From the sequence record NC_104726.1: a DNA stretch of 64,000 bases. One strand, written 5' to 3'. Positions 24,504-42,674 of this stretch are shown here, piece after piece. The notes under the pieces were generated by a model. It made no database searches. It had not been told where the DNA came from and saw only the letters and a list, made by a program, of their open reading frames with translations. The position numbers were made by a program, and so were the translations under genes. Each line of letters opens with the position of its first letter. Position 1 is the stretch's first letter. This stretch comes from a phage.

Positions 24504-26576
24504 TTATGAGAAGTCTGGCGGGACAACATCTTCTACATACCCTTTCAGAGCAACCTGCCCCATATGAAGCACGGTAGAATCTCTAGCGGTAACAGTGATG
24601 CTGTCAGACATTACTTGCGGGTATGCCCACACATACTGTTTTACCTCAGGGTATCTATACTCTATAGTTGCCATGTTTCCGCAAATACATCTCCATAAAA
24701 ATTCTTGGTAATTCCTGGTTGGGTCGTAACCATATACCGGAGCAAGCTCTTTACTAGGAACGAACCCTGCAAGGTATTGTATTTCAGACGGTTGCCAACC
24801 TAACTTAACGATAGGTATGTTTACAGACTCTTTTGCCTTTTCAATACCTCCCTGCATCACCCAATCGTAGCACTCAGTGCAGAAGAAATCAAGAGCACCT
24901 GCTTCTTTTTTATATTGGTCAGCAAGGTTCAGCTTTTGCGTAAGCTCGGTTTCCATAATGGTTGGGAAAAACAGCAGAGCTGTCATCTGAGCTGATGCAG
25001 CGTGTGCCTTTATTGCCTTTGAAATAGCCGCAATACGAGCGCCAAGCTTACCACGACAAAATGCTACATACTTGTCGTAAACACCGCCAGTTTTAGGATC
25101 GTCAATAGTCCCAATATCTAATGCATACTCACCTGTCTCATCATAAAACGCCTGTTTTGTAGGGTAATCATAAATACAAGGTCTACGAGTATCGGTATTG
25201 AACCACCACCACGGTTCACCAACCTGCATAATCACTGGCAGGTTGTTTCTCATAGCGGCTGATGCAAAATTCTTAAATACTGCAGTAAGGAAATTCATGC
25301 CCTCTTCAATGGTTGGAGACAGGAGGTAGCTACAAGGTGTATACCCTGTTTTAGCGTAGTTATCGTTCCAGTCTCTTTGGGTCCATTCCAACGGGCAGGC
25401 ATCGCTGTAAAGCTCAAAACTTACAGACTGCATAACGTCGAAGTTATGTCGTTTGGCATTGTACATAAAATCATCATGCCATTTATAAGCTGCAGCGTTT
25501 AGCGCCCCTGTTCTGTTTATAGACCATTGGGTTCCTGACCATGTGTAGTCATAATAATGACTCATACCAACATAGTGGTTTATGGTTCCGGTATAGCCCA
25601 GACGCTTGATATTGTTCAACACTCTTAAAGGAGATACGTTCCACATATCGTCATATGCGGTGCAGATCCCGACGTCGTGCTCTTTAACCTGAATATTGTT
25701 AAGTTGCATCATTTTCCAGCCCGTGTCTGGCTGAAGCAGATCTAGGCGCAACTCACACTCTACATTTTCCGTTCTCGGGTCTGTGCTATTACTTACCCAG
25801 TCTTTAGGCATAAGCGGTATTAAAATCCTTCTCACCTGCCGAGGATCAACACCCATCATGTTGTTGTTCTGATCCATCCCGACGCAGTCCTCGAAATCAA
25901 TATGAATCTCTGCAACATTCTTATCCTCTGAGATGCTGACAGCATATTGAGCTAAAGGAACATAGATGATTGTGCCATCAACAAGGTCTACAGTCATAAT
26001 CATCTTTTCAGGAGTGGAGAAGTTGCTGGCATTGGTTATTGACATTCTGAACCAAAGCTTGGTGTTTCTCATCTCATAGTGATCATCAAACCCAATACCG
26101 AAATGGTCATACTTGTCAACTGTTTCCCAAATGCACCCAGCCATACCTCCATATGTTCTTGACACTAAACGGTTAATACAACAGTTGTCGTCTGCAACAA
26201 TACAGGTACTTTCAGTCTGCTGAGTGGTTGTAACCCAATACCTTGGGTGAAACATTCTCTCCTCAACAGTATCCCAAGATATCCTGTCAAGATTCTCATC
26301 TGAAACTATTGTACATTTCGCCCTTTGTGTTCCAATCATCACCCCTTGAGATTTTGATGAAAACTCCATAAAGAAGCTTCTTGGCAACCTGTTGGGTAAT
26401 TTGTCAACAATTTCTACGGGGATCTCAATACTGGTTGCCCCAATTGGGATAGTTACATCGCCCTCAACATGATTATAATCCCTACCAGGAACGGCAGTAT
26501 CCTGAACTGTTCGGTAGTGAAACTGTGCAGCCATTGTAGAGTAATCACGGTAAGGTTTAAAAACAGCTGTTGCCAT
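24504..26576 (-). CDS. tail fibre / baseplate-attached protein (690 aa)
   Basis: Follows the J-like and I-like baseplate genes in P2-like order; N-terminal Calx-beta-like segment. Confidence 0.4.
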   Translation of the reverse strand: MATAVFKPYRDYSTMAAQFHYRTVQDTAVPGRDYNHVEGDVTIPIGATSIEIPVEIVDKLPNRLPRSFFMEFSSKSQGVMIGTQRAKCTIVSDENLDRISWDTVEERMFHPRYWVTTTQQTESTCIVADDNCCINRLVSRTYGGMAGCIWETVDKYDHFGIGFDDHYEMRNTKLWFRMSITNASNFSTPEKMIMTVDLVDGTIIYVPLAQYAVSISEDKNVAEIHIDFEDCVGMDQNNNMMGVDPRQVRRILIPLMPKDWVSNSTDPRTENVECELRLDLLQPDTGWKMMQLNNIQVKEHDVGICTAYDDMWNVSPLRVLNNIKRLGYTGTINHYVGMSHYYDYTWSGTQWSINRTGALNAAAYKWHDDFMYNAKRHNFDVMQSVSFELYSDACPLEWTQRDWNDNYAKTGYTPCSYLLSPTIEEGMNFLTAVFKNFASAAMRNNLPVIMQVGEPWWWFNTDTRRPCIYDYPTKQAFYDETGEYALDIGTIDDPKTGGVYDKYVAFCRGKLGARIAAISKAIKAHAASAQMTALLFFPTIMETELTQKLNLADQYKKEAGALDFFCTECYDWVMQGGIEKAKESVNIPIVKLGWQPSEIQYLAGFVPSKELAPVYGYDPTRNYQEFLWRCICGNMATIEYRYPEVKQYVWAYPQVMSDSITVTARDSTVLHMGQVALKGYVEDVVPPDFS

Positions 26577-27262
26577 TAACCCTCCTGTCTAGTTGCGTTT
26601 ACTGTAATACTTTCACAATAAATGGTTGTGGTGTCCCAATCAGGTCTTACGTCAGGAACATATAGCAAAGTAGCCAGCCCACCAACTCCGAATTGGTTTT
26701 CTTCCCACACTGATCCGAAGCCAAGAGCTGTAGAGTCCCCTTCAAAACCAAAAGCTTGCCCTTGCGATTCTGTAAGACGCAAATGACAAGGCAATGGTAG
26801 CATATCTAAGATCTGATCGATAGACTGCAATATGTCAAAGCAAGTTTTTCTAATATTTATGTCAAACCTGAAGTTGTCTCCTTTCCACGTATCGAAATTG
26901 TCTCTTCCGAACAATTGTCGCAAGGTGGAGATGACATCTTCGCGAGTCCCGCCCCTTGATGCTGCGGCCTGCTGAATAATTAGTGTGGCACGAAAATCAG
27001 CATCTGAAAGTCCATTCCTAAGAATACCAAGTTGATTACCAACTTCGTCAAGGTATCTTCCGCTGGCATTGTTAAGCAATCTTCCTTCAGCCAAACCTAC
27101 CAGCATCTTATCAACATCCTCCAACCTTTTAAGGTATACGGTTAAGAATGTGACTAAATTAACCTTCTCAGCCAGAAAATCTCCAGGCAGGTAGTCAAGA
27201 CCTCCCTGAACAAAATCTGGCAGAGTGTGGATGTGGTTAACATCCGACTTAATCTCTGCCAT
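26576..27262 (-). CDS. baseplate/tail protein I-like (XkdU/DUF2313-like)
   Basis: Motif RYLDEVGNQLGILRNGLSDADFR and position immediately after the baseplate J-like gene. Confidence 0.5.
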   Translation of the reverse strand: MAEIKSDVNHIHTLPDFVQGGLDYLPGDFLAEKVNLVTFLTVYLKRLEDVDKMLVGLAEGRLLNNASGRYLDEVGNQLGILRNGLSDADFRATLIIQQAAASRGGTREDVISTLRQLFGRDNFDTWKGDNFRFDINIRKTCFDILQSIDQILDMLPLPCHLRLTESQGQAFGFEGDSTALGFGSVWEENQFGVGGLATLLYVPDVRPDWDTTTIYCESITVNATRQEG

Positions 27263-27273
27263 ATCTCGCCGCC

Positions 27274-28764
27274 TTAAATAGTTTGTTGGAAAGTTATATT
27301 ACTTTCGTCGAGGTCAAACACCTCGGTCATGTTCGCAACAATATCGTTTGTAGTGTAAGCTTCATCAGAAGCTCCTACGGATTTAACTTGAATTACCAGT
27401 CTATTAAATCTGCCTATTGACACAGCAGCGGATGCAGCACCGACCAATTGGATATTGTATAACGTATCTGCAACATCCAGTCCGTTAACAACCTGCAAAA
27501 GAGCCTCTATAATGGCATCTTTTTCGGTTGTAGAAAGCGCAGCACCGGAGTAGGTAATTCTTACATCTAGGCGGTAGGTGTTTGCCTTGGAGTAATAAAT
27601 TCTTTCAGTTTGACCGTCAGATGTAGTGACATCGTAGAAAATATTACCATAAGTCCTGTTCGTACAGGCTATAGTTTGGTAAAGTGCTTGGCAAATGTCC
27701 TCCGTTGCACCACCAAACACAACCACTTGGAACTTGTAAGGAGGTATACCTTTAGCATCAGTTTTATCGGTGTTGTTGGAGAACACCCTCACTTTCTCAA
27801 CACCTTTCACCTCGCTTACAGCGCTAAGGATTGCAGGACGGGTAGCCTTAGATGTTAACTGTTTTGTGCTGGAAGCTCTTAAGCGATACTCTGAGTCTTT
27901 CTCAACATCCCTGCCCTCATTGAATCTTTCTCGGTTGGTAAGCTTGATAAATCCACTGGGAGTAGGTGACATTGTTGTCACGGTTTCTGCCTCTCTTGAC
28001 AGCTCACCAGCCTCGTTAGCGATAACATCCAGGGTGATAGTTCTTTCCCCTACAATCGGGGATACTCTGAAATCTACTCTACTATTAAGTCCAACTTGAT
28101 CAAGATTCGAATTGTACCCTATCCACAACGTTCCTGTCAACATATCGACCTGAATCAAATCGTCGTTCAACAGGGTTGTATTATCGACAATGAATTGCTT
28201 AATCTCTCCGTAAAAGCTTGGCAAATCAGAAGAGTCCAGAGACTTATCTGTTAAAACCAGACTTTTTGTTTTGATACTTCCATCTGTCTGGTTGGTAATT
28301 TGAAAGTTGTATTTACCAATCCTTAGGTCTGGAGCATTTATTCTGTGAGCAATAAGATTCCCTGCTACTTGCACATCGTTGCTAAGAACAAAGTTGCCAC
28401 TGTCCAGCGTATAAGTTTTGGAATCATAAATCATATTGTACGGCACAGTTGTGTTGATTGTCAACTGGCAGGTACCTGATGATTTAGAACGGCCTCTTCG
28501 GTAAATACCCTGTCTTCCAAGAAGCTCATCCAGGTAAATACCTTCTGCCCCATACAGCGTCTGTGATGCGTATACAGATGCTGCCATAAGAATAAGTTGA
28601 TACTCTCGCTCGTTGAAGATAGTGGTCAGCTTATCTGCAACGGAGTTACTCTGTACGTTGAAGTTTTCGCCAAAAGCACGGATCAGGCTTTGCTTAGTTT
28701 CAACGATTAGGTCATTTAGGGTTGGTATAACGAAACCAGCCTCTGTCAATCCATACTTAGCCAC
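27274..28764 (-). CDS. baseplate J-like protein (P2 J / Mu gp47 / T4 gp6 family)
   Basis: N-terminal signature incl. AEGIYLDELLGRQGIYRRG; GTG start with GGAGGAG upstream. Confidence 0.65.
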   Translation of the reverse strand: MAKYGLTEAGFVIPTLNDLIVETKQSLIRAFGENFNVQSNSVADKLTTIFNEREYQLILMAASVYASQTLYGAEGIYLDELLGRQGIYRRGRSKSSGTCQLTINTTVPYNMIYDSKTYTLDSGNFVLSNDVQVAGNLIAHRINAPDLRIGKYNFQITNQTDGSIKTKSLVLTDKSLDSSDLPSFYGEIKQFIVDNTTLLNDDLIQVDMLTGTLWIGYNSNLDQVGLNSRVDFRVSPIVGERTITLDVIANEAGELSREAETVTTMSPTPSGFIKLTNRERFNEGRDVEKDSEYRLRASSTKQLTSKATRPAILSAVSEVKGVEKVRVFSNNTDKTDAKGIPPYKFQVVVFGGATEDICQALYQTIACTNRTYGNIFYDVTTSDGQTERIYYSKANTYRLDVRITYSGAALSTTEKDAIIEALLQVVNGLDVADTLYNIQLVGAASAAVSIGRFNRLVIQVKSVGASDEAYTTNDIVANMTEVFDLDESNITFQQTI

Positions 28765-28844
28765 GTCACTCCTCCGGTATGAAAATCTCTACAAGGTATT
28801 TTACCAAATTTTGTAACAATAGTCAATCTGAGCATAAAAATAAA

Positions 28845-28860
28845 CCCCGCCGAAGCGGGG
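28845..28860 (-). terminator. hairpin CCCCGC-CGAA-GCGGGG with T-run on minus strand
   Basis: Just downstream of the stop of gene 28870-32469; minus strand continues TTTATTTTTAT. Confidence 0.5.
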
Positions 28861-28869
28861 CTTTAAAGG

Positions 28870-31800
28870 TTAGTCGTGAGACTCGTTCCAAGGTCCTTGG
28901 AAACTAGAGTTAGAACGGCTTACCACAACAGTAGGACAGGATATTGCGACCCCTGTTACAGAAGACGTTGACCATGGTGTGTAGATTTCAACAACAATAT
29001 CTATGGTTTGTTCACCAAGACCCGTTATCCCTACCGCACACATGCCGTTGTTGTCGTTTCCGTACTTCTTACCTGCAAGGATTTGATGTCCGGCTATCCA
29101 AACGTTAAGCTGGGAGCTGGCAAGAGTACCATTCAGTTTAAAGAAGAATGTTACGTTCTTACCCTGACCTGAAACGTTATCTACGTATCTCCACCTCCAA
29201 CGGCAAACCCTTTGCCGGGAGTTATATACTGGAGCACAATCTCCGTAAGTCCTGTGTGCAACAATTGCACCTTCGAACTGGTTAGCGCGGATAACAGAAG
29301 CTTCTACACGACCACGGAAGGTACCTCCGGTTGCATCTATGGTGCCTCTAAAGCTACCATTATTGGCATAAACATCCCCACGGAAGGTACCACTAGTGGC
29401 GTTAACTGCCCCTGTGAAGTTACCAGAACTGGCGTTGATGTTGCCTTTCACCCACACATCCATAAATTGGGCGTGCCCGTTCTTGTTAATATACCAACCG
29501 TATTTATGGTACCCGTTGCCATCGTAGTTGTTTGACGAAATTTCTTGTGCGATCTTGGCAGAGGAGATCGTGCCATTCTCTATAAAAGCGTCTTTCAAGA
29601 ACGCTTGGTTGTTCTTGATTGCGAAAGCAAGGGTTGCTGTTCCATTTCCGGGGTTGTATACCGCAAAATTGTTTGCACTAACCATGAAGTAGGATTGAAC
29701 TTGGCCCCCAGACCCTTCCATCCCCAGCTGGATACCTGCAACATATTTATTCCCTGCGGAGTCTACCTGAATCTTAGCTCCCCACTGAGCATCTATTTTA
29801 CCCTCAAGTGTTGTTACAGCTTTAGAGGTATTAGATACTGTAGCCCTGAGCTCATCAATATTACCCATTTCGTCAACAATTTCTTGTTTTGCAGAGGTAA
29901 GTTCTTGACGGATCGCTGTGGCTGTATTATTAACAAGATCAACTGTTGTACTATTAGTTTCTTGAATAGATGCTTGCAGATTGGCAACCTCTTTCTGCAC
30001 ATCATCTTCCAGCTTGGTGATCTTCCCTGTAGCTGCCACCAGATCCTGCTTAATAGCTTCCGTTGTCTTATTTAGCAGATCGGTTGTTGCCTTGTTGGTT
30101 TCTTGAATAGAGGAGTTAAGTTTGCTCTCAGTGTTCTTCAACTCTTCCCGCAGAGTACCTTGAGTTGCAGTTATTTGCTCACTCAATGCTTGAGTTTTAC
30201 GATTAACAAGATCAACGGTTGATCTATTTGTTGTCTCGATTAGTGACCCAAGCCTACCAGACTCTGCTGCAAGTTTATCGTCAAAGGATTGCTGAGCTGC
30301 TACCAGCTTACTGTTAAGGGCAGAAATTTCTCCATTAACCCCTGTAAATTTTTCTGTCGTCTCTCTGACAACACCCTCTATTGTATCCCCAAGCTCTTCA
30401 AAAATGCTAGTAACACGGTCATTGACTGCACCAACATTTTTATCCATTTCCTTGACTGCATTATCAAGATTGGCGGTAAGCTCTTTATAAGTCTCTGTCT
30501 TTTTGAACTCCGCATCAATCTGTGGCATAAGATCTTCTATGGATGTGTAACAGTGGGCTGCACACTCCACAAAAGCAGATGAACCAAAAGCATTTGTTGT
30601 CCTGATATACCAATAATAAACCTTATCGTTCTGCAGACCTTCAGATGTCCAAGTTGAACCAACACCCATACGGGTGGCGTTTGAAGTAACGGTTGCATCA
30701 CTGGTGTCGGGCAACCTTGTCATACCGGATGTCCAAAAGTCATACTGGGTGCTAACACTTGCTAAATCCCTACTATGCGGAATCAAGGTGATAGCAAAGT
30801 ATCCTTGCTTAACCTCTACAGAAACCGGAGCTTCAGGTGCCTGAATGTTAAACTCACAGTACGCTTCTGGAGATACACCACCTTTATAAGATGTTGCAAC
30901 CACGGTTGCTGTGTATGACCCTTTGGTCAAACCTTCTACTCTGACAAACTGCTCAACTGTCTGTGCTGTCCAAACAATCTCTCCGTTCTTTCTTACCTGC
31001 ACAATATTTTGAGCGTAAGTCCCAACGTTGTCCCAGGCCAAAACACCGTGAGTTACTTCCCCAGCTTGGAGAACGGAGTATCTGAAGTTTTGCGGCTGAG
31101 CTACACCGGACGGGGATATCGGAATATCTACATCGCCGGAATCCGGAAGTTGCCCTGTGGCATCATTCCACTCTTTAGCATCTTGACGAAGTTTTACCTT
31201 GACACCACCCTTTTTGGTAAACTCCCATTCAAGAACTCTCATTTCTTGGCCCACTATACCAATACTTGGGAGGTCCATTGTAACATAACGGCCAGGCTTA
31301 AATTTAAAACCTCGCATATTGCAGGTGACTTCAATAATCCTGCCAGCTCTAGCACGTCTTAGGAAGATTGCAGAAACACGCTGAGCTTGATAAGGACTGG
31401 TAACAAAGCGATAGTCTATATCGATTATCTTTCTTTCTCCATCCTTCTCTATCCACTCTGGGACAAACACTGATGGAAAATCTGTTTCAGAATACCCTTT
31501 GGTAGGACTGGTGAATCTGCCAGTTATTGTGTTGGATCTTTTGTCAAATGAGGCTTCCGGATAGATCTTGACCTCACCACAGACACAATCCTCACTTAGT
31601 GTCATTGTTGCCGGGCCATAGTATGCACCAACCAGCAAACCATACTTACCAGCTACATAGCTGAGATCTGCACCACAAGCTTTCAGCATTTCTGCCATAA
31701 TGCTTGCTGGGGCCTCATCCATGTCAAACTCACCGTTAATGGTGTAACGTCGCTCACTGGTTCCGTCAGCGTTTTTTACCGCCTCGTCGCATATGTTGGC

Positions 31801-32469
31801 AGCCTCCTTGAAGGACTCCCAGTTAATGGTTTCGTCAGGACATTTAAGGTACGTTCTTAAATAGTCTAGGATCACCAAGGCCGCGTTATTGGTATACACC
31901 TCTTTACTGATACGAGGATCATAGCATTTTTTACCAACCTTGACAAGTGTAACGTTTGGCAACCCAAAAGGAAACTTGTTAGGGTCAAACCTGAAGCTGG
32001 CACGTAGCCAACTGATCCCTCTACCTATCATGTCAGGTGACCATGATGGGCAGTGTGTACCCATGAAAGGATCAGATGTTTTTCTGTCGTTATGTAGCTC
32101 CCACGATACCAGATCTCCATACGAGGAAATAGGATTACCGTCGATAAGTATATCTTCTATACCTTCCAGAGGGTGATTGGCAAGAACAATAGCACAATGG
32201 AGGGTTCTGTCGCTATCCTGCTCCAAAAACGCAAGCAATCCAGATGTGCGTGTCTTTCCATACACTACAGAGCAAGGTGCAGCAGAAGATCTGAGAAGCT
32301 TTTGTCTATCTTGCTGACTTCTGTAAGATTTGTTGCCCTCAAAAATCTTATCCAGAGTTCTGGTGGTAACAGTGTTCAGGCTGTCAGCCAGAGCTGCCTT
32401 GGATGCGTTCCAGTCATAACTTGAAGATCTTGCAGAAGCAACGATGTTATCAATCATTGCAATTGGCAT
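28870..32469 (-). CDS. host-specificity / central tail fibre protein, lambda J-like (1199 aa)
   Basis: Segments NKYVAGIQLGMEGSGGQVQSYFMVSANNFAVYNPGNG and FN3-like APEAPVSVEVKQGYFAITLIPH parallel lambda J; long coiled-coil and C-terminal Gly-rich repeats. Confidence 0.7.
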   Translation of the reverse strand: MPIAMIDNIVASARSSSYDWNASKAALADSLNTVTTRTLDKIFEGNKSYRSQQDRQKLLRSSAAPCSVVYGKTRTSGLLAFLEQDSDRTLHCAIVLANHPLEGIEDILIDGNPISSYGDLVSWELHNDRKTSDPFMGTHCPSWSPDMIGRGISWLRASFRFDPNKFPFGLPNVTLVKVGKKCYDPRISKEVYTNNAALVILDYLRTYLKCPDETINWESFKEAANICDEAVKNADGTSERRYTINGEFDMDEAPASIMAEMLKACGADLSYVAGKYGLLVGAYYGPATMTLSEDCVCGEVKIYPEASFDKRSNTITGRFTSPTKGYSETDFPSVFVPEWIEKDGERKIIDIDYRFVTSPYQAQRVSAIFLRRARAGRIIEVTCNMRGFKFKPGRYVTMDLPSIGIVGQEMRVLEWEFTKKGGVKVKLRQDAKEWNDATGQLPDSGDVDIPISPSGVAQPQNFRYSVLQAGEVTHGVLAWDNVGTYAQNIVQVRKNGEIVWTAQTVEQFVRVEGLTKGSYTATVVATSYKGGVSPEAYCEFNIQAPEAPVSVEVKQGYFAITLIPHSRDLASVSTQYDFWTSGMTRLPDTSDATVTSNATRMGVGSTWTSEGLQNDKVYYWYIRTTNAFGSSAFVECAAHCYTSIEDLMPQIDAEFKKTETYKELTANLDNAVKEMDKNVGAVNDRVTSIFEELGDTIEGVVRETTEKFTGVNGEISALNSKLVAAQQSFDDKLAAESGRLGSLIETTNRSTVDLVNRKTQALSEQITATQGTLREELKNTESKLNSSIQETNKATTDLLNKTTEAIKQDLVAATGKITKLEDDVQKEVANLQASIQETNSTTVDLVNNTATAIRQELTSAKQEIVDEMGNIDELRATVSNTSKAVTTLEGKIDAQWGAKIQVDSAGNKYVAGIQLGMEGSGGQVQSYFMVSANNFAVYNPGNGTATLAFAIKNNQAFLKDAFIENGTISSAKIAQEISSNNYDGNGYHKYGWYINKNGHAQFMDVWVKGNINASSGNFTGAVNATSGTFRGDVYANNGSFRGTIDATGGTFRGRVEASVIRANQFEGAIVAHRTYGDCAPVYNSRQRVCRWRWRYVDNVSGQGKNVTFFFKLNGTLASSQLNVWIAGHQILAGKKYGNDNNGMCAVGITGLGEQTIDIVVEIYTPWSTSSVTGVAISCPTVVVSRSNSSFQGPWNESHD

Positions 32470-32894
32470 TAATACCTCCAGACATCAACAACGATAGAAT
32501 CTTTCATATCGAACATAAAGACCCCTTTATCACCTTTCGCCCAAATCTGGTTGTTCCAGAACACACCAGCGGTGAGCCCGTTCAGACCATCGAAGATAAC
32601 AATATCGCCACGCTGAACCTGTTTAGGAGTATCTAGTCGAGTCATAAAGAGATCAAAAATAGTAGGCAGGTGTGTGGTTTTGAAACGGAGCATGCACCAT
32701 CTTTTGCTTTCCAACTCTGTTTTATACGTTCCTTCGAAGTTAGAAAGAAAATCTGTTCCGTATTGGGCATCAACACACTTAGCTGCAAAGGTGCAGCAAT
32801 CGTGGAATCCCCATTCAAAAGGTATGGTGGCCTCTTCGTCAAACACTTTCCACAATCTTTCTTGCCAATCCACTAAACGAGGGTGTGTGCTCAT
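32469..32894 (-). CDS. NlpC/P60-like tail assembly protein (lambda K-like), ~141 aa
   Basis: WGFHDCCTF Cys motif and GDIVIF; ATG at 32892-32894 with GGGAGG upstream (track start is a TTG). Confidence 0.4.
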   Translation of the reverse strand: MSTHPRLVDWQERLWKVFDEEATIPFEWGFHDCCTFAAKCVDAQYGTDFLSNFEGTYKTELESKRWCMLRFKTTHLPTIFDLFMTRLDTPKQVQRGDIVIFDGLNGLTAGVFWNNQIWAKGDKGVFMFDMKDSIVVDVWRY

Positions 32895-33445: not shown

Positions 33446-33446
33446 C

Positions 33447-34136: not shown

Positions 34137-37100
34137 TTACTTCAGTTTCTCTTGCAACCCAGTAACAACCTCTGTCAATTTTTTAACCTGCTCCTCAAGG
34201 GCGGTTATTTTATCGTCCTGTTCCCTGCAAACCTGGACAAGCAAGCCTGTTACGGCTGCGTAATCCACGCTATAGAATCTTTCCTCTGTTATCAAAGGAG
34301 TTCCATCTTGATCAGAGTTTGGGATTTCCTTTCTTTGCACGAAAGAGCTAACTGCTTCCGGCAGCGCTTCAAGCACTTCTTGTGCTATAACACCTGCATA
34401 AGGCATACCGTTCTCTTTAAGAGTGTAAGTATAACCCTTCATCTTCCGGATAGCTTCTAACGCATCAGGAATAACAGCTATGTTGTCTTTCAGGTCTCTG
34501 TCAGAGCTCTGATTGACAGATGTGCAATTCACTGCACCGTTTACAGAAAGATATCTTGATTTATCCGGCAAGGTACCGCAATGCCATACCCAATTTGCTT
34601 GAGACTCGTCAAGAACCTTAAACTCTAACACGTTTGGACGAGCCCCTGTGCTGCCGTTACCCCAATAATGCATATGGGCGGCATTAGCAGGCATGTTGCC
34701 ACCGTTATTAGTAACATGGCTTCCAGAAATATACACCTTTAACTCTGGGGTAGGTATTTCCCCTTCTGGGGTTGTTCCTCCATACCTGAAGCTAACACCA
34801 TTACCACCTGTTTGGGTCCACGGTCCCCAAGTGAAGACCTGTTTCACCATATTCCCATAACGTGTAAATCTATCGCCATGATAGGTAATATACTCTTGAA
34901 CACACCCATTACCATTATTGGCGTTATTTTGCAACACAATAAGTGTTCCGGCCTCATTTACGGGATAATGACGATCATATGTTGCATCATTATTTGCAGG
35001 CTGATGGTAAATACCTTCCCACAATCCGTGATAGGTGTTAAGGTCTGAAGTACCAAGACCCTGACCCCTGTGTTGCATAGCCTTATTCCAGGGATGGTGA
35101 TTACCACCTTCTATAGACCTGGTATACAAGTTACTTTGTCTGCCAGCAATCTGGAAAGCGTAGTTTCCAGAGAATCCTACAGATAAACCGCCTACAACCA
35201 TGGTATCTTGTGGGCCGTTAACATTACCAGCTATTATTTTTGACGGGTTGTTAGGCCCAAACTGGTTGTTCCAGTCTGCACCCGTGTGGCATACAAAACC
35301 ACCAGGAGCTGAGAAAGTGCCATCTTTGTTGAAATTGTAGAACTTATGAGCTGTACCTACAACATCGCGAACGATAACTTGACCAGCTTCCGGAGTAGAT
35401 CTGAACTCTGCCTGGCCTTGCAGTCTTGCACCATTACCACATTTAGAGGTAAAGGTGTTGTTGATCAGATCCTCTGTTCCTTCCGATGCAGCTTGGAACC
35501 CTGCGTTAGAGAACAGTGCTTTTCTAGTGGTCTGACTGCCAGGACAAATGTAGTCAATACCGTCTGCCCATAGCTCGACTTTTGGCATATTCATTTTGCT
35601 CATCACAGCATAGCGTTCAGCAGTGCCTATATAGTGCCACTGTGTGCCGCCACCAGTGTAGAACCCTGAAGTCCCTTTGAAGTCAACAATAGGTCTGGTG
35701 TTGGTATTATTATCTCCAAGAACAGCAAGATTCAAATCTGCTGACTGGAGAGGTGCAACGAACTTAACACCGTCCTGATTGTCTGTTACAGAGCCAACCT
35801 GGTAATCTTGCTCCCTGGTAAACACCTCGACAACATTTCTACTTGCGTATATGCTGACAGGGAAAGCACGCGCCTCTGCATAGAAAGCAACATATTCTTG
35901 TTTACCCCTTGTTGGAGCAACCATCCCAAGAAGTGCTTTTTCATTCTGGTAGAAATTTACTACCCCGTAGAAAGAGTCTCCTCTGTTTGTCCAACCACCA
36001 GTTCTATAGTGACACTGTAAGGTCGCACAGTTCATAGGGTCATTTCCAGATGAAGACCTGGTGACTATAGTAATATCTGTACCTGTCGAAGGGGCGTAAT
36101 ACGGATCTGTTCTAACGATGATTGGGTAGTATTTCCCATCTTCCATCCCTGCGGTTCTTGGCAGTGTTAAGAAGTCTTTTACACCTGCTGCTATAGGAAC
36201 TTTGAACAGATTCTGAGCGTCTGCTAAAGTTGTAGCCCCAGTGCCACCTGCGGCTTGAGGTAGAGGTTCCCACTTGGCCTTCCGGTTGTTATAAACACCC
36301 CATTCAAGCGTTCCTTCACCTTGCTCGTCCATACCGCCATCCCAGACAACCATCTTGGCGGCTTTCTTGGACCCCCAGAAACCTCTTTCTGCCCCTGAAC
36401 TACGGATCCACTCTCCAAGTCCCCAGTTTGCCAGCTGACCGTTCAGATCACCAACCTGCATATATTTAGGACAATCTAAGACCCCATCCTCACGGAAGCC
36501 TAAATAGCTATGAGTTTCAGATCCTTTTGCGCCTTTGTGCAGGTGGATTGTCAACCAAGCCTTATTGTCGTTTCTTACCTCAGAGTAGATCCTATACCCA
36601 TGCTCAAGGACACCGTCAGCGCCGTATTTATCCCCATGGAGAATACCTGATGGAGACTTAACCTCAGAAGTGCTTTGAGATAGGTAAAGGTTCCCGAAGG
36701 TAGGGGTATTTCTAGACCCGAGACCGATGTGCGATCTAAAGGTATCATCGTTACGAGGTCTGACCATCGGCTGCCATGCAGTCCACTGATTTGTGTTGGC
36801 CTGATAGGTTCTCAAATACCAAACATCTACGTTAGAGAATGGATAGTATTCCTGACGACAACCTGTACCGCCGTTAGCATTGTTCTGCCAGACAATCAAG
36901 TGACCAGCACCAGAACCTGCAGGGTAACCATTTGCCTCAGTTGCATAAGCAGTCATCGGCTGGTAGTATACACCATCCTGATTACCAGTCAAGTTATTGA
37001 TATTGAAATTTGGCTCAAGGGCTGCACGTTGCTTATAGAAAGCACCGATATTGATACGGACCCCAGCGGCATCTCTAGCCCCTGTGCCGCCTTGCTCTAT

Positions 37101-37955
37101 AGCAAGAGGTTGCCACGAAGCTGTTTGTTGGTTCCACATACCCCAACGGCCTGTTGCATCAAGCTGCAAGTACCCTGCCGTATTTAAATCATCTCCAGCA
37201 CGGATAACTGTTCTTGTTGGGTTGTTTGCCTCTAGGCGTTTAAATTCATCACGAAGTGCTATTCTTTTCGTTGTTGCTACACCGTTGGTTACTGCAATGG
37301 TGTACATGGCTCCGGTGGTAGCGCCACGGAAAATACCATCAACAGTTGTAGTATCACGACGAGATACCACACCGTTCAGAAATTTTTCACCAGCTGCTAC
37401 AGAAGGGTAGTTGGTAGTTCTTCCCTCTTCAATAACTGCAGGGCCAACAAAGTTATCAAGGTGAATAACATCGCCTACAGTGTGCACTGTACCAAAATCT
37501 ACACGCTGTGCAAGTGCTTTGGCATCGTTAGCTGTCTGAACAGTAACATCCATTACATCCTGGACAGACTGCCCTTCGGCTGTCATGATCATAGATGCGC
37601 CAATGGTAGATTCCAGCTCCTCCCTTAAGGACGGGTCAGTATATACCATCCATGCAGCATCAGTGATCCCACCATCGGAGTACGGTGAAGACAGTGCAGG
37701 AACAGTGTGCGGAAATTCGCCTTTCCAACGTAGGTAGAGGTCTTCCTCTTCGAAGTAGGCAAAATCCATTGGGCCGTTTAACTTACCACCTTCCTTAAAG
37801 GAGATTACATGAGAAACAGTCCCATCCACATGGACAACATCGCCAATTTTTACACGACGGGTCAGGTCTGGTTGTTGAACAACCAGGTAATCATCCTCTG
37901 TCACTGCGGTAGTGGCAGGAAGAGATTCAATTCTGACAACTTTAATATCAGCCAT
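34137..37955 (-). CDS. tailspike / tail fibre with C-terminal intramolecular chaperone (peptidase S74-like) domain, 1272 aa
   Basis: C-terminal SDRDLKDNIAVIPDALEAIRKMKGYTYTL...GVIAQEV matches the auto-cleaving chaperone domain of endosialidase/T5 L-shaped-fibre type proteins; N-terminal domain shared with gene 40590-41258. Confidence 0.6.
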   Translation of the reverse strand: MADIKVVRIESLPATTAVTEDDYLVVQQPDLTRRVKIGDVVHVDGTVSHVISFKEGGKLNGPMDFAYFEEEDLYLRWKGEFPHTVPALSSPYSDGGITDAAWMVYTDPSLREELESTIGASMIMTAEGQSVQDVMDVTVQTANDAKALAQRVDFGTVHTVGDVIHLDNFVGPAVIEEGRTTNYPSVAAGEKFLNGVVSRRDTTTVDGIFRGATTGAMYTIAVTNGVATTKRIALRDEFKRLEANNPTRTVIRAGDDLNTAGYLQLDATGRWGMWNQQTASWQPLAIEQGGTGARDAAGVRINIGAFYKQRAALEPNFNINNLTGNQDGVYYQPMTAYATEANGYPAGSGAGHLIVWQNNANGGTGCRQEYYPFSNVDVWYLRTYQANTNQWTAWQPMVRPRNDDTFRSHIGLGSRNTPTFGNLYLSQSTSEVKSPSGILHGDKYGADGVLEHGYRIYSEVRNDNKAWLTIHLHKGAKGSETHSYLGFREDGVLDCPKYMQVGDLNGQLANWGLGEWIRSSGAERGFWGSKKAAKMVVWDGGMDEQGEGTLEWGVYNNRKAKWEPLPQAAGGTGATTLADAQNLFKVPIAAGVKDFLTLPRTAGMEDGKYYPIIVRTDPYYAPSTGTDITIVTRSSSGNDPMNCATLQCHYRTGGWTNRGDSFYGVVNFYQNEKALLGMVAPTRGKQEYVAFYAEARAFPVSIYASRNVVEVFTREQDYQVGSVTDNQDGVKFVAPLQSADLNLAVLGDNNTNTRPIVDFKGTSGFYTGGGTQWHYIGTAERYAVMSKMNMPKVELWADGIDYICPGSQTTRKALFSNAGFQAASEGTEDLINNTFTSKCGNGARLQGQAEFRSTPEAGQVIVRDVVGTAHKFYNFNKDGTFSAPGGFVCHTGADWNNQFGPNNPSKIIAGNVNGPQDTMVVGGLSVGFSGNYAFQIAGRQSNLYTRSIEGGNHHPWNKAMQHRGQGLGTSDLNTYHGLWEGIYHQPANNDATYDRHYPVNEAGTLIVLQNNANNGNGCVQEYITYHGDRFTRYGNMVKQVFTWGPWTQTGGNGVSFRYGGTTPEGEIPTPELKVYISGSHVTNNGGNMPANAAHMHYWGNGSTGARPNVLEFKVLDESQANWVWHCGTLPDKSRYLSVNGAVNCTSVNQSSDRDLKDNIAVIPDALEAIRKMKGYTYTLKENGMPYAGVIAQEVLEALPEAVSSFVQRKEIPNSDQDGTPLITEERFYSVDYAAVTGLLVQVCREQDDKITALEEQVKKLTEVVTGLQEKLK

Positions 37956-37990: not shown

Positions 37991-40588
37991 TTAAAGGTAC
38001 AATCCACGGTATTGAGCATAAAGGCCCAGACCGCGAAGGATTTCGCCAGAGTGATAGCCAACCGGATCAGAAACTGCCCAGCAGCCGTTTAAAACATTAT
38101 CCCCATTAATGAAGTGGTGCTTTTGCAGTAGCTTCACACAGGCTTCTACAACAATATCTATTTGAGGTATTGTCTCTGAATACCCGCACAGACCTAGCCA
38201 GCAGCAACCTGCAAGCCATTCACCTACCACCCACATCCTGTCTCCTCTGTCCTGATAAGAATATCCCCCAGAGGTGTTAAAGTCTGTAGGTAGATTTCCT
38301 GAATGAGATGACTGGAATCTGTTGAGGAACCATGCCCATTTCTGGCAGAACAGGAACAGTCTTTCATCAACAGGTTCTTTATGTTTCTTGAGCTCATATA
38401 TTGTGCGGCACGCAGCAACAAAAGATCTTGACTGGAGCTTAGAGTTATCTACCATCTCCCACCAACCAGTCAACCCTTCATTACCTCTCTGCCATACATA
38501 ACGTGAGGCAACTGGACCCTCTGTCTTAAATGTATTATTATACCAGACTTGAGCGTCATACAGAAAGCCTATTGTATTTGACAATCTATGGCGATCTATG
38601 TTTTCTGCACCCATGCAGTAGACTGCTGGGTATTGCATGCCTGGGTAGGGCCAATTTGGCCTTTCCTCTAAGAGATAGTTTTCCTTATCTATCACCTTTC
38701 CGGCAGGGAACACACCTGGTGTGTGCCTGTATGCACCTTGCTTGTAGTTTCTGACATAGCAATCACCAACCTTAGCGGTTGATTCTGTCTTGCTTGCCAT
38801 CCATACGCTAAACCAGATTAGATAAGCATCCCTATCTGCAATATAGAATTGCGGCAGTGTGTTGACGCAATATAGATCAAACAAGCCATTACCTATCTGC
38901 CTGTCGCTTAGGCTGAAATCTACAGAGGTGAGTCCCTTAGGATTAGCAAAGAAAGGTTTAATCTCTTCTTCAGTGTGATGAGGTTGTGTCGGATCTAGTT
39001 TGAAATCTCCTAGAGTAAGAGTTTCTGTTATCCATTGTCCATTAGTGGCATATAGATCAGCATACCATAACCACCTGTCTTTGTCAAGAAATTTGACCCT
39101 TACCATCTCATCATCTGATCGATAAGTTACTGAGTTTAAAGAAATCTCTCTTCCAAAATTGAAAGTTACTTTGCCTCTTGCTATATTACAACGGGTGAAG
39201 TTGTCAGAGTGGTTGTAAATGTCAGTATCGTACTGCATACTAACACTGGCACCACCGCTCACGGCAATGTTTTCCTCTTTAGGTAAGAGGTACGGATTAC
39301 CGTCTTTACCAACTACCTCTACGAAATCAGTAACCTTGGCAACTATTTCTGTTACCTCTGCCCCTCCAAAAGGAACCCCTATCCTGTACTGTTTTTTGTT
39401 ATTGTTGCCATCATTAAGGATGAAATGTGGCTGGAACAGAACCCCTTCTCCTCCGAAATTCATAACAATTTCAGCATCTCTGCCTATTTTGTATGTAGTC
39501 CCTTTTTGAATTATTTCGCAAGGCTGGCGTGCGTTCATTCTAAAATTGATATACCCGTCACTGTCCCTACTCATGACAGGAACTGTTCCTGCAACAAGAC
39601 AAGTACCATCTGTGAACGGTGCCTTAATCAACGTGGTCTTTCTAAACAGTTTGTCGTAGGCGTTTATGTCACTGAAATTAAGCAACTTGTTGTAAGACTG
39701 TTTAAACGCGGTGTAATACTTTTCTTCACCTGTCAAGGTGTAGAGTTGATAACAAGCGTCACACCACATTTCTTCCCCGTCCAACTCTGGGGCCTGATTA
39801 TCTGCAACCACGTTTATAGGATTTACAATTACAGGGGATCCAGCAGGTATCACCGATCCACCCTGCTCTTGAGGTAATCTTACACAATAGGTCACCTTGT
39901 GGCTTCCTGTAACACCCTTATCTTGTAATTGGATTGTGCCGAACTCTATAGACGTATGCCCACTGTCGGCTATGCTCCCGTTATCCCAATAGCGGTTACC
40001 ATCCCATGCTATGTACCACTCAACCCACCAACTTAATCCGGATGTTGTCCAATCTGGGTTAGCATCTGTGCCACCGTAAACATCAGAGTCTACAGTGTTT
40101 CTTCCTAACACACCGTTATACGCTTGGAATGCCTTGTCCAGGTATTCCCCCCATGTCGGAGATCCAGCTGGGATTTTTCCTCTACCGTTGGTAAAAGACA
40201 CTACCACATCTTTAAACCCACCGTGTGATGGAACCCCATCTGTGGATAGAGGGTAGTGGGACAATCTTTGCATTTTACTTTCTACGGCATATGCACCCAG
40301 AAGATGACTATTGTAAGCTTCCCAAGCATCTTTTGCCCTATCCAGATAGAAATCGCTTTTCGATGCCCTGTATGCTTCAATGTATCCCAGAATCAACACA
40401 GCTTGGGACTCATGCATTGCCCAATCGTTATTTATCTTATTACCTGCCCACCCTGCAGCTATAAGACCATCAGGGTTTACTAGCTTATTTTGTGTAGGTG
40501 TGTTGGTAATACCTGTGTTGTTATCGAGGCACTTCCTGTGCCCCTCAATCATCTGAAATACGTTATCAATGTTGTGTTGAATACGCAT
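37991..40588 (-). CDS. tail-associated protein, possible alpha/alpha-toroid glycoside hydrolase-like enzyme (865 aa)
   Basis: ATG 40586-40588 with AGGAG upstream, 2 nt after the stop of the adaptor-like gene; Trp/aromatic-rich motifs; fold assignment by impression only. Confidence 0.35.
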   Translation of the reverse strand: MRIQHNIDNVFQMIEGHRKCLDNNTGITNTPTQNKLVNPDGLIAAGWAGNKINNDWAMHESQAVLILGYIEAYRASKSDFYLDRAKDAWEAYNSHLLGAYAVESKMQRLSHYPLSTDGVPSHGGFKDVVVSFTNGRGKIPAGSPTWGEYLDKAFQAYNGVLGRNTVDSDVYGGTDANPDWTTSGLSWWVEWYIAWDGNRYWDNGSIADSGHTSIEFGTIQLQDKGVTGSHKVTYCVRLPQEQGGSVIPAGSPVIVNPINVVADNQAPELDGEEMWCDACYQLYTLTGEEKYYTAFKQSYNKLLNFSDINAYDKLFRKTTLIKAPFTDGTCLVAGTVPVMSRDSDGYINFRMNARQPCEIIQKGTTYKIGRDAEIVMNFGGEGVLFQPHFILNDGNNNKKQYRIGVPFGGAEVTEIVAKVTDFVEVVGKDGNPYLLPKEENIAVSGGASVSMQYDTDIYNHSDNFTRCNIARGKVTFNFGREISLNSVTYRSDDEMVRVKFLDKDRWLWYADLYATNGQWITETLTLGDFKLDPTQPHHTEEEIKPFFANPKGLTSVDFSLSDRQIGNGLFDLYCVNTLPQFYIADRDAYLIWFSVWMASKTESTAKVGDCYVRNYKQGAYRHTPGVFPAGKVIDKENYLLEERPNWPYPGMQYPAVYCMGAENIDRHRLSNTIGFLYDAQVWYNNTFKTEGPVASRYVWQRGNEGLTGWWEMVDNSKLQSRSFVAACRTIYELKKHKEPVDERLFLFCQKWAWFLNRFQSSHSGNLPTDFNTSGGYSYQDRGDRMWVVGEWLAGCCWLGLCGYSETIPQIDIVVEACVKLLQKHHFINGDNVLNGCWAVSDPVGYHSGEILRGLGLYAQYRGLYL

Positions 40589-40589: not shown

Positions 40590-41258
40590 TTAGATAGCTC
40601 CTGCGATAATCAGTGCCCCGTACCAAGTTAACCCGTTGTCGTAGGTTTCCAACTTGAAAATGTCTGTTGCACCAGCTGTAAATGTTAGGATAGGATCTCT
40701 TCCGTAGGACCATTTAACATTACCAGGCCAATAGACTTTGTTGCCGCCAGAGGTCTGAGTAATGCATACGGTTATAGTTCTCGCCACCCCTTCAAGACCT
40801 TCTGTTTGATTTTCAAAAGAGATTGTGGTATTTGAAGTTAGTCGAACCTTAAAGGTATCCGCAACTTCAAGATCCATATCAAGCTGACCACCGATAGATC
40901 CGTAATCAACTATTCTGCCAGAAGAAGTTGCAGCAAGCTCACCAAAAACAGACCAGGCGTTTGCAGACACACCCCCAGCACCCTCTACAGTGGAGTCTGG
41001 GAGGATTATTTTAGGATAATCCCCGTTCCACGTGTAGTAGCGCTTAGTTTCTGGATCATAAGCAAAGTCCTTCTTGCTCTTAAGATAACCACCCTCTGTG
41101 AAATAGACTATTTTAGTAATGCTGAGATCGTTGACAACATCATCAATCTTAGCCTTTCTTGTCCCATCAGTCTGGTTGACAACCAAGAAGTCATCACTCA
41201 GGACTGTTTCTGCATCTTCAAGATCTGGAATTGGTATTGTAGGATAAGCTACAGCCAT
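40590..41258 (-). CDS. tailspike N-terminal (particle-attachment-like) domain protein, 222 aa
   Basis: N-terminus IPDLEDAETVLSDDFLVVNQTDGTRKAKIDDVV parallels the N-terminus of tailspike 34137-37955. Confidence 0.45.
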   Translation of the reverse strand: MAVAYPTIPIPDLEDAETVLSDDFLVVNQTDGTRKAKIDDVVNDLSITKIVYFTEGGYLKSKKDFAYDPETKRYYTWNGDYPKIILPDSTVEGAGGVSANAWSVFGELAATSSGRIVDYGSIGGQLDMDLEVADTFKVRLTSNTTISFENQTEGLEGVARTITVCITQTSGGNKVYWPGNVKWSYGRDPILTFTAGATDIFKLETYDNGLTWYGALIIAGAI

Positions 41259-41267: not shown

Positions 41268-41984
41268 TTAGTTAACATCAATAGCACGACCAGACTGGTT
41301 GGCAATAGCCTCATCATTGGAGGTAGCAATAACACCAGAGTATTCGCGCTCATCTGGAGCAAGCGTCCAGGTATTGCGGTTAATGGTTTGTTCTGCCTCA
41401 GTCATCAGCAGATCTTTATCCTGAGTCAACAGAGAGCCTACAGGGATCGGGTTTTCCATCTCAGGACCAGCATACTGGTTCCACCATGTGGCATCTCCGG
41501 TTCTAGGCAATCTGAAGTTGATCAGGTAGTACAGTTTATTAGCCCACTTAATCCAACCCTCATCATCACAGAGAGAGGTTGTCCCAGAATCAGGTTGTGG
41601 GTAGGTAAACTGATCAAGACCTACGAAAGCCAGCCTTACAATCTCGTTCTCTTTGGTAACAACCTCAAAGAACGCTTGGTATGTTCTCGATCTTCGATCC
41701 ATGGTAGACTGGAAGTTTACGATGTTTAGCACATCCGGCTCTTGTCTTGCCACTTCCATAATCTTGTTATCAAGAACAGTCTTCATGACCTTCTTACTGA
41801 GAAAGTCCATATAAGGGAAGCCAAACAACTCGTCAAAGTACCAGCTCCCCTTCCACGTATTAAACCTCATCCACAAGCGCTGGCGCAGACTTACCTGGTT
41901 TGAATCTATCAACTCAAGACCTTTGTCTATCGCCAAATCGCCTGTCTGTGGGTCCATCAATATATCACTATAAAGCGTAGCCAT
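41268..41984 (-). CDS. baseplate wedge protein (gp25/W-like)
   Basis: Motif SLRQRLWMRFNTWKGSWYFDELFGFPY; lies between the spike-like and J-like genes. Confidence 0.4.
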   Translation of the reverse strand: MATLYSDILMDPQTGDLAIDKGLELIDSNQVSLRQRLWMRFNTWKGSWYFDELFGFPYMDFLSKKVMKTVLDNKIMEVARQEPDVLNIVNFQSTMDRRSRTYQAFFEVVTKENEIVRLAFVGLDQFTYPQPDSGTTSLCDDEGWIKWANKLYYLINFRLPRTGDATWWNQYAGPEMENPIPVGSLLTQDKDLLMTEAEQTINRNTWTLAPDEREYSGVIATSNDEAIANQSGRAIDVN

Positions 41985-41996
41985 GAAAGCCCTCTA

Positions 41997-42674
41997 TTAG
42001 TGCGGTCCACTTGTCTCGCCATCAGGGCAAGAGTGGGTATGACCTTTATATTCTGCATAGAATGAATCCAAATCCACACCAGCAGCAGTTATAATTCTAC
42101 CAGATGGGTCTATTGTGGCACCATTCATTCTGATATTTCCATCCACAGCAGCTCGCAAATTGGCAGCCCCGTTAGTAAAAGAGAACTCCCCGCTGCTGTC
42201 GCACCGTAGTGTTCCACCCGGTGTCTGAAGCTCAAAATCGCCAGAAGGTGTCAGTTTAAAATAAACCCTATCATTCCATAACTCTACGTTATCAGGATCG
42301 ATCTGTAAAGCGTTTGAGTCTGAATGAACGGAGGTGATTGCCCACCCTGGAAACAGGCCGTGAGTTTGTTGATCGTCGTTATTGTTTTCATTCCTCTCTG
42401 AAAACTGCAATCCTACAACATCTCCGGCCTTAATAGGAAGTGTTAACCTTGCCTTTCCGCTGTTTGCAGACATTACCTGAATTGGAACGTCATAGATAAG
42501 AGGGTATCTCTCCACATCTCCGTCATCAAACGTGGTTTCAGCTATTGGCTGCACGGCTGCAGAAGGGATACTGTAGTCTACACTGACAACTCTGGCCCTG
42601 ATACTGGTGTGGTAGTCCCTCATTATTTTTTCTATAAAGGATCTTACAGCAGCATCTTTCCTATTTATTGCCAT
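41997..42674 (-). CDS. baseplate central spike protein (P2 V-like)
   Basis: C-terminus YKGHTHSCPDGETSGPH resembles the P2 V C-terminal tip motif. Confidence 0.5.
   Translation of the reverse strand: MAINRKDAAVRSFIEKIMRDYHTSIRARVVSVDYSIPSAAVQPIAETTFDDGDVERYPLIYDVPIQVMSANSGKARLTLPIKAGDVVGLQFSERNENNNDDQQTHGLFPGWAITSVHSDSNALQIDPDNVELWNDRVYFKLTPSGDFELQTPGGTLRCDSSGEFSFTNGAANLRAAVDGNIRMNGATIDPSGRIITAAGVDLDSFYAEYKGHTHSCPDGETSGPH

Follow-up and report, generated by a model that had tools for sequence, protein, structure and literature searches.

We analyzed a 64,000-nucleotide (nt) stretch of phage DNA (sequence record NC_104726.1; hereafter the window), which is the late region of a Vequintavirus, an rV5-like E. 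coli myovirus, with ~97% nt identity to Bas57 and JES2013. Next to the genes for a contractile-tail baseplate, it carries a block of four genes homologous to a siphovirus tail tip, which encode a distal tail protein (Dit), a gpL-like protein, a DUF6950 protein and a J-like hub with central fibre. Siphovirus tips and myovirus baseplates are usually seen as alternative solutions, but here one virion encodes both. The siphovirus tip complex has probably been re-used as an accessory receptor-binding device on the contractile baseplate; the myoviral set injects, and the siphoviral set appears to be demoted to an optional host-range organ.

A siphovirus-type tail tip in a myoviral baseplate operon

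A first-pass annotation, made by a model from the sequence and without database searches, had placed tailspike genes and a lambda-like block between the gp25-like and wedge genes, and both the coordinates and the order of these genes were confirmed. The tail genes examined were all on the minus strand. The block consists of the following genes, with protein lengths in amino acids (aa):

33447..34037, minus strand: siphovirus-type distal tail protein (Dit), two-domain T5 pb9 type, 196 aa; 32% identity with CAjan gp15
32894..33445, minus strand: gpL-like/DUF2163-type second hub protein, 183 aa; 40% identity with CAjan gp16
32469..32894, minus strand: DUF6950 protein, weakly NlpC/P60-like, positional gpK analogue, 141 aa; PF22262 E 4e-33, 44% identity with CAjan gp17
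28870..32469, minus strand: J/pb3-type hub and central fibre, 1199 aa; matches by Pfam, phmmer, profile search and hhalign, 52% identity with CAjan gp18 over 774 aa

The J-like protein contains the Pfam families Phage_Tail_Tip (E 3e-38), Ig_J_second (2e-30) and Ig_J (3e-5), and phmmer matched it to lambda J (PDB 8iyk_J, E 1e-26). With a nine-sequence profile of residues 1–480, hmmsearch found T5 pb3 (E 3.9e-18) and lambda J (E 2e-5), and hhalign aligned the hub with residues 115–482 of lambda J (probability 95.9%). As the match to J spans the N-terminal hub, we identified the 1199-aa protein as a full-length J/pb3-class hub with central fibre. Its plan is a hub (1–~460), FN3/Ig domains (470–655), a coiled coil (655–890) and Phage_Tail_Tip (878–1017), followed by a beta-repeat and a lineage-specific C-terminal domain (~1060–1199). 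The first-pass annotation had likened this protein to the C-terminal region of lambda J; the kinship with lambda J stands, but it takes in the hub and leaves out the extreme C-terminal receptor domain. The LamB-type receptor domain of lambda J had no match in the J-like protein, and the alignment to lambda J stops near 1036–1046. Residues 1025–1199 (~175 aa) found full-length matches in Vequintavirus alone (tblastn, 91–99% identity).

The two ends of the protein differ from its siphoviral homologs. All those examined (8/8) begin with a ~45-aa hydrophobic N-terminus rich in Ala, Gly and Ile, with a 19-aa Kyte–Doolittle maximum of 1.73–2.34, whereas the N-terminus of the window protein is polar (maximum 0.31) and keeps the MPxAxI start. 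Judging from these profiles, the hydrophobic N-terminus is lost from the myoviral copy. Within the genus, the window protein and rV5 gp37 are 99–100% identical in the hub, FN3, tip and C-terminal domains; in the coiled coil (~650–900), identity drops to 55–76% and the window protein is shorter by 80 aa (indels of 4, 18, 11 and 47 aa). By this alignment, the variable part of the J-like protein within the genus is the stalk and not the tip.

For the Dit, gpL-like and DUF6950 proteins, neither phmmer nor profile hmmsearch gave a significant match to PDB sequences, so fold comparison was used for these small proteins. The predicted Dit and gpL-like models have confident native folds, and their comparison recovered the gpL fold for the latter and, tentatively, a gpM-like fold for the former. 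A protein search with the single Dit sequence returned near-identical proteins alone, and an alignment-based search was then used. Lambda M, L, K and I had no significant match among the window proteins by BLASTP or hhalign, except for a faint local match of K. That match, to the DUF6950 protein, is short and falls on a conserved DC motif (hhalign probability 11%). DUF6950 is the sole Pfam family in this protein at E ≤ 0.1, but weak NLPC_P60 matches occur in 5/9 members of its family (best E 0.037), and MepS/Spr is on top when the family profile is compared with PDB (E about 0.1). The motifs "WG..DC" and RGD(V/I)V are conserved in all but one truncated member. The catalytic histidine of NlpC/P60 proteins is expected after the position of the second motif, and the family alignment has no histidine after RGD(V/I)V; the 141-aa protein may lack catalytic activity or be an unusual NlpC/P60 member.

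Some features of lambda's own tip are missing. Because the K analogue has only 141 aa, it is too short for an MPN/JAB domain. Lambda gpL has a C-terminal four-cysteine Fe–S cluster site, which is unlikely in the 183-aa protein because it has only two cysteines. There is no open reading frame (ORF) for gpI between the DUF6950 and J-like genes, which abut at 32469, and lambda I had no BLAST match in the region. The resemblance to lambda M-L-K-J proposed in the first pass is therefore sound as an architecture but loose as a set of families, with gpI and MPN absent, a two-domain Dit, and no sequence-level match for M, L and K. Profile and fold searches could have reassigned the block to other functions; instead, they strengthened its reading as a tail tip.

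The closest relatives of the block are Queuovirinae/T5/T1-type tips and not lambda. Compared with gp15–gp18 of CAjan (Seuratvirus, Queuovirinae) by BLASTP, the four proteins match over their full length and in the same order, with 32, 40, 44 and 52% identity (E 1e-27, 2e-45, 5e-45 and 0). CAjan gp15 is annotated as Dit, gp17 as a "putative peptidase" and gp18 as "central tail fiber J". The same four-gene order was found in Hafnia phage yong3, Serratia phage Serbin, two Vibrio siphoviruses and Pseudomonas phiPSA1. Among the relatives fetched, the siphoviral block is directly downstream of the tape measure gene wherever that end is in view; in Vibrio phage 1.056.O, an unnamed 780-aa coiled-coil protein occupies the tape measure position before the block, and two Lokivirus genomes, whose tape measure lies outside the fetched stretch, have an extra ~900-aa gene between Dit and the gpL-like gene. 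In the window, the tape measure gene is at 45060–47399, and six myoviral baseplate genes and three fibre genes separate it from the block.

Within Vequintavirus, the block is constant. The region 26576–42674 matched 125 phage records, of which 112 cover at least 80% of it at 90–99% nt identity; nearly all of the 112 are Vequintavirus E. coli myoviruses, such as Bas57 MaxTheCat, JES2013 and rV5. The four ORFs are intact (4/4), and in more than 100 Vequintavirus genomes the aa identity is 90–100% by tblastn, as assessed with Dit, three segments of the J-like protein and the flanking wedge gene; for the gpL-like and DUF6950 proteins, conservation is given by the 112-record nt match. Outside the genus, tblastn with Dit or the J hub showed a gap, with ≥90% identity in Vequintavirus alone and then <60%. 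The matches below this gap are almost all in genomes of ~32–85 kilobases (kb), and those inspected are siphoviruses, led by Queuovirinae (hub 55–58%). The other large genomes listed are Vibrio phages of ~126 kb with a weak partial match to the J hub alone (23% over 58% of the query). The tail-tip domain matched 1769 records, and when 60 of these were sampled at even spacing, every genome larger than 100 kb belonged to Vequintavirus. A scan of IMG/VR with the J hub gave five loci. Neither phi92 nor a Klebsiella relative, as fetched, has the four-gene block. A tip block together with a contractile tail thus looks peculiar to one genus within the collection examined. The first pass had called a contractile-tail phage with both unusual, which holds among sequenced phages, although within Vequintavirus the combination is constant and already so named in RefSeq.

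The Dit protein has diverged out of proportion to the J hub. The ratio of Dit identity to J identity is 0.56–0.77 (mean 0.68) between the window and siphoviruses, and 0.77–1.18 (mean 0.97) among siphoviruses; the effect is smaller for the gpL-like protein (0.75 versus 0.93) and absent for DUF6950. Because Dit contacts the tail tube in siphoviruses, its excess divergence would fit a change of docking partner, albeit in a small sample. We infer that the block derives from a Queuovirinae-like siphovirus lineage. Recent transfer was considered and is unsupported, as the G+C content of the block equals that of its surroundings and its identity with siphoviruses is only 32–58%.

The genes themselves are already known. 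More than 100 public genomes contain them, already annotated as J and Dit (the 196-aa protein is annotated as "distal tail protein"), and the original rV5 record noted gp37–gp40 as similar to siphovirus PY54. Alternative-fibre behavior was described in a 2025 preprint without the interpretation given here, and we found no explicit account of a siphovirus tip in Vequintavirus in the literature searched, the coverage of which was incomplete. This is not a new discovery at the sequence level, but the system is real, coherent and experimentally tractable.

Virion content and host-dependent requirement

Virion proteomics, to which the first-pass annotation had looked as a check, places a product of the block in the particle: gp37 of rV5, the orthologue of the J-like protein, was detected by mass spectrometry of purified virions (4 peptides, 4.2% coverage; PMC3606486). 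Its peptide GYSETDFPSVFVPEWIEK is identical in the window protein. As gp37 was the only block product detected (PMC3606486), and as the BASEL annotators name the J-like protein a "lateral tail fibre", one alternative is that the J-like protein is alone in the virion, as a trimeric lateral fibre attached by its N-terminal domain, while Dit, the gpL-like protein and DUF6950 are chaperones or scaffolds or largely dispensable relics. We regard this as unlikely. None of the four ORFs is broken, the conservation across the genus described above covers the whole block, and Dit and the gpL-like protein were modeled with confident native folds. The hub of siphovirus J is unstable without its partners, as in the lambda tail assembly pathway, which also counts against a fibre on its own. 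The absence of the small proteins from the rV5 list says little because only 19 proteins were detected, and mass spectrometry of this depth would miss small proteins of low copy number.

Transposon data for Bas54 (HIDEN-SEQ; 10.1101/2025.11.20.689424) separate the block from the rest of the baseplate. On E. coli K-12, few TA sites were disrupted in the hub (0/56), spike (1/41), gp25-like (2/42), Baseplate_J wedge (3/109) and second wedge (2/39) genes, and all of these are essential. On the same host, Dit (48/50), DUF6950 (17/18) and the J-like gene (180/221) were classed as non-essential, and the gpL-like gene (28/35) as "intermediate". On the uropathogenic strain CFE311, insertions in the block were depleted relative to K-12, with log2 fold changes of -6.42, -5.06, -5.29 and -6.44 (adjusted p 0.00000). 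Insertions in four other genes were enriched in the same comparison, namely those for the gp25-like (+6.5), 222-aa (+4.2), 865-aa (+3.7) and 1272-aa (+3.9) proteins (genes 0024–0027). The 222-aa adaptor gene, for example, is needed on K-12 and tolerates insertion on CFE311 (10.1101/2025.11.20.689424). The block is thus required conditionally and independently of the 222/865/1272-aa set, and this opposite behavior fits the "composite adsorption device" suggested in the first pass.

The gp25-like gene of Bas54 tolerates insertions only in its last ~35–68 codons, and only on CFE311. In phiTE, the sheath initiator is connected through its C-terminus to a helical bundle at the N-terminus of a long fibre, in a "rip-chord bundle" (PMC11972413). 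By analogy with phiTE, this suggests that the C-terminal extension of the sheath initiator anchors the 222/865/1272-aa fibre set. We read these data as two alternative baseplate arms. The first would be the sheath-initiator tail with the 222-, 865- and 1272-aa proteins, needed on K-12; the second would be the siphovirus-type block, needed on CFE311 and working without the first.

That the block is dispensable on a laboratory host, and that sister groups do without it, could also be explained if it were a horizontally acquired remnant without function, kept by linkage. This is barely credible, because the block is open and highly conserved in every Vequintavirus sampled, has a promoter-like site and a terminator of the phage's own type, contributes a product to virions and is strongly required on CFE311. 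Decay or pseudogene status of the block was ruled out by its conservation, virion detection and conditional essentiality.

Models for the tip complex and comparison with known systems

In the arrangement we favor, an accessory arm, DNA would be delivered by the conventional baseplate, with penetration by the spike, hub, sheath and tube. A J hub trimer would join a gpL-like trimer with help from the NlpC/P60-like protein, and a Dit hexamer would cap them, as in siphoviruses. Once co-assembled, the complex would no longer end the tail tube, having lost its role in forming a channel and binding the tape measure, and would hang on the periphery of the baseplate as an accessory adhesin. The coiled-coil stalk and the lineage-specific C-terminal domain would then reach a putative receptor present on some hosts only.

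Several points weigh against this arrangement. It is hard to see how a ring of six Dit subunits would attach to the side of a baseplate. Dit, the gpL-like protein and DUF6950 were not among the 19 virion proteins detected in rV5 (PMC3606486). Conditional essentiality was measured on a single clinical strain and reported in a single preprint, and the "CFE303" sheet of its supplement duplicates the CFE311 table. Insertions in the small genes may act through polar effects on the J-like gene, in which case their depletion would not reflect a need for each small protein; such polarity could account for the CFE311 depletion in the three small genes under the fibre-alone alternative as well. [quoted passage not shown] The divergence ratios come from seven genomes, and the kinship of DUF6950 with NlpC/P60 is weak (E 0.04–0.1). 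Regarding the duplicated table, in supplementary file 9 of the preprint (10.1101/2025.11.20.689424; sheets Data S6/S7), the sheet "resampling_K-12_vs_CFE303" has the console line B54_2_311 and the CFE311 numbers; because it repeats the CFE311 run, the CFE303 comparison is not obtainable from the supplement. The cryo-EM study of Bas49 and Bas54 also noted that a Vequintavirinae fibre class and a Tempevirinae fibre have in common an N-terminal region described as "common in central tail fibers" (PMC12143355).

A different geometry would keep the tip on the tail axis, where Dit6-L3-J3 surrounds or caps the gpV-like spike, and receptor binding by the J-like protein opens the cap, as T5 pb3 does, to gate or trigger penetration. 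The module keeps all the components of a closed siphoviral tip, including the cone-forming hub domains, and a 3-fold J and L over a 6-fold Dit would match the symmetry of the baseplate, in which a 3-fold spike and hub lie below a 6-fold tube initiator; the first-pass idea of a composite tip also points this way. We nevertheless consider a coaxial tip distinctly improbable. Wild type infects K-12 with the block present, and phages with a disrupted block remain fully infective on this host, so the cap would have to be harmless either way. The baseplates of phi92 and phiTE show an exposed spike, with the tube-like face of the hub occupied (PMC13450770, PMC11972413), the Bas54 and Bas49 maps report no central cone (PMC12143355), and the hydrophobic N-terminal segment of J has been lost. 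A doubtful but conceivable extension of the peripheral arm is that the complex is an active tail-tip "sensor", which keeps the pb3/J opening and signals to the wedges, giving the virion two triggers for sheath contraction, chosen by the host. If so, a whole machine of one tail type would be re-used as a peripheral organ of another.

Among known systems, the Queuovirinae tip (CAjan gp15–gp18, yong3) has the same four genes in the same order, with nearly the same sizes and the same J plan with a long coiled coil. However, the Queuovirinae tip follows the tape measure and ends the tube, whereas in the window ~11 kb separate the block from the tape measure, and the block sits within a myoviral baseplate operon, with a promoter-like site of its own. 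The window J also has no hydrophobic N-terminus and a different C-terminal domain, and the window Dit is unusually diverged. Compared with the lambda tip (PDB 8iyk), J is homologous in the hub, FN3/Ig and tail-tip domains, the gpL fold and, tentatively, the gpM fold are recovered and the K analogue has a weak NlpC/P60 signal, but the window has no gpI, MPN/JAB or LamB-binding C-terminus, and its Dit has a second domain that gpM lacks. In T5 (pb9 Dit and pb3; PDB 4jmq, 7zhj), the hub, central fibre and receptor binder are split among pb3, pb4 and pb5, whereas the window J-like protein carries hub, fibre and tip in one chain.

The contractile relatives differ in the other direction. The plug, hub, spike, sheath initiator, both wedges, short tail fibre and chaperone of phi92 are orthologous to those in the window and in the same order (PMC13450770), but its cassette carries other spikes (endosialidase, colanidase) and, as fetched, no siphovirus-type Dit/L/K/J block. 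phiTE was compared by its published description only, which mentions no such block (PMC11972413). The multi-tailspike complexes of Ackermannviridae and the "Swiss army knife" of phi92 likewise place several host-dependent receptor-binding arms on one contractile baseplate; there, each arm is a tailspike or fibre linked through adaptor domains, whereas the window arm is a whole tail-tip complex with hub-class proteins.

If the accessory arm were confirmed structurally, it would mean that whole multi-protein tail assemblies, and not just fibre domains, move between tail types and are re-purposed, and that a Dit/hub/J complex assembles and functions without a tape measure protein or tail tube. 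Vequintaviruses are often considered for therapy, and they would then carry a modular arm that could be swapped for retargeting. Bas54 is a directly testable system for this, as a transposon library, a host that requires the block (CFE311) and cryo-EM data sets exist.

Surrounding baseplate, fibre cassette and operon punctuation

The core contractile-tail baseplate is encoded on both sides of the cassette:

44071..44982, minus strand: tube initiator of the contractile-tail baseplate, 303 aa; Pfam Dit_like PF21821 E 2.5e-22, Bas57 annotation "tail tube initiator"
43678..44058, minus strand: baseplate plug/spacer, 126 aa; Pfam Pam3_gp18 E 2.9e-18, 40% identity with phi92 gp136 (plug)
42674..43678, minus strand: gp27/Mu gp44-class baseplate hub, 334 aa; phrog_196 E 2e-83, 39% identity with phi92 gp137
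41997..42674, minus strand: central spike, P2 gpV/phi92-spike type, 225 aa; PF18352 spike N-domain E 1.4e-9, 27% identity over the full length with the phi92 spike
41268..41984, minus strand: gp25/W-like sheath initiator with C-terminal extension, 238 aa; phrog_120 E 6e-21 at residues 6–116, 25% identity with phi92 gp139
27274..28764, minus strand: baseplate wedge, P2 gpJ/T4 gp6 class, 496 aa; PF04865 Baseplate_J E 3.9e-9, 31.5% identity with phi92 gp145
26576..27262, minus strand: second wedge, P2 gpI position, 228 aa; phrog_4056, 29% identity with phi92 gp146 (wedge heterotrimer partner)

By BLASTP, phi92 gp136, 137, 138, 139, 145 and 146 have one-to-one orthologues in the window, as do gp140, 141, 142, 147 and 148. 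Cryo-EM of phi92 assigns the roles of tube initiator (gp135), plug, hub, spike, sheath initiator and wedge heterotrimer (PMC13450770), and the phiTE baseplate follows the same plan (PMC11972413). The assignment of the 303-aa tube initiator rests on Pfam and annotation, as its counterpart gp135 is cut off in the fetched phi92 stretch. The 228-aa protein has no Pfam family at E ≤ 0.1 and is for this reason "I-like" by position and role only. With the sheath and tube genes, which are annotated in near-identical genomes, the "simple" contractile baseplate set of the P2/Mu/phi92 class is complete (initiator, plug, hub, spike, sheath initiator, two wedges, sheath and tube). The P2 order V-W-J-I-H-G is present as spike, gp25-like protein, [cassette], Baseplate_J, second wedge, (690-aa protein), short fibre and Caudo_TAP chaperone, with the cassette splitting the W and J positions. 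Pfam, PHROG and phi92 orthology thus bear out the P2-like order of spike, gp25/W-like, J-like wedge and I-like genes seen in the first pass, the "I" being positional.

Across this phage group, the genes that lie between the sheath initiator and the wedges form a variable fibre or receptor-binding cassette. In phi92, it holds gp140–144, including an endosialidase, and in the Klebsiella relative a colanidase and a 1357-aa protein. In the window, the cassette ends with the four block genes (196, 183, 141 and 1199 aa; 28870–34037), which have no phi92 counterpart by BLASTP, and begins with three others:

40590..41258, minus strand: fibre adaptor, 222 aa; Tail_spike_N PF18668 E 2e-10, C-terminus 42% identical to the phi92 gp140 C-terminus
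37991..40588, minus strand: lateral fibre/spike, 865 aa; phi92 gp141 orthologue, 35% identity over 928 columns
34137..37955, minus strand: fibre with intramolecular chaperone, 1272 aa; Tail_spike_N and Peptidase_S74

The 865-aa protein had no Pfam match. The 1272-aa fibre is a mosaic, with segments 35–38% identical to the side fibres of CAjan (gp20) and yong3, which sit just downstream of J in those siphoviruses. As far as these segments indicate, the siphoviral host-recognition region may have been partly co-acquired beyond the four-gene block.

Terminator hairpins and promoter-like sites frame the block on both sides:

34110..34129, minus strand: intrinsic terminator, GCTTCGGC tetraloop hairpin with T-run, closing the upstream fibre operon (after the 1272-aa gene)
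34068..34097, minus strand: promoter-like site of the four-gene block, TTGCGT, 17 nt, TGGTAAAAT; consensus match
28842..28863, minus strand: intrinsic terminator, GCTTCGGC tetraloop, closing the four-gene block (after the J-like gene); near-identical to 34110–34129
28797..28826, minus strand: promoter-like site for the wedge operon, TTGACT, 17 nt, TGGTAAAAT; consensus match

Each of the two GC-rich terminator hairpins is then followed by TTGnnn, 17 nt and TGGTAAAAT. The exact 10-mer TGGTAAAATA has 4 copies in the window, all on the coding strand. They lie upstream of the Dit gene, upstream of the wedge gene, in the gap upstream of another tail gene (48230–48239) and in a 41-nt gap (51753–51762) upstream of a 156-aa ORF (51277–51747). 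At ≤1 mismatch, the 10-mer has 19 matches, versus 6.3 expected by chance, and promoter-like sites of the form TTGnnn-17-TGGTAAAATA recur on the coding strand. From these consensus matches, we infer promoter function and, with it, that the four-gene block would be its own transcription unit; the repeated terminator and promoter-like elements are probably the phage's own late-operon punctuation.

The 690-aa protein encoded after the wedge genes (24504–26576) combines domains of the N4 gp65 "non-contractile tail sheath" type (TIM barrel, E 1e-79) with a Calx-beta domain. It is the orthologue of phi92 gp142 (42%), was classed as essential in Bas54 and probably binds the N4-type glycan/enterobacterial common antigen (ECA) receptor discussed in the BASEL papers. 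At 21393–24491, the Caudo_TAP chaperone gene (194 aa) lies between two paralogous genes for short tail fibres of 346 and 347 aa, each related to phi92 gp147. Among the matching records, at least 18 of the series MG0656xx (e.g., H23, H26 and H28) are labelled "Campylobacter phage" with the host Campylobacter jejuni. Their proteins are 93–100% identical to those of rV5-like E. coli phages in the regions searched, and these records look like wrong host labels or contaminated isolates.

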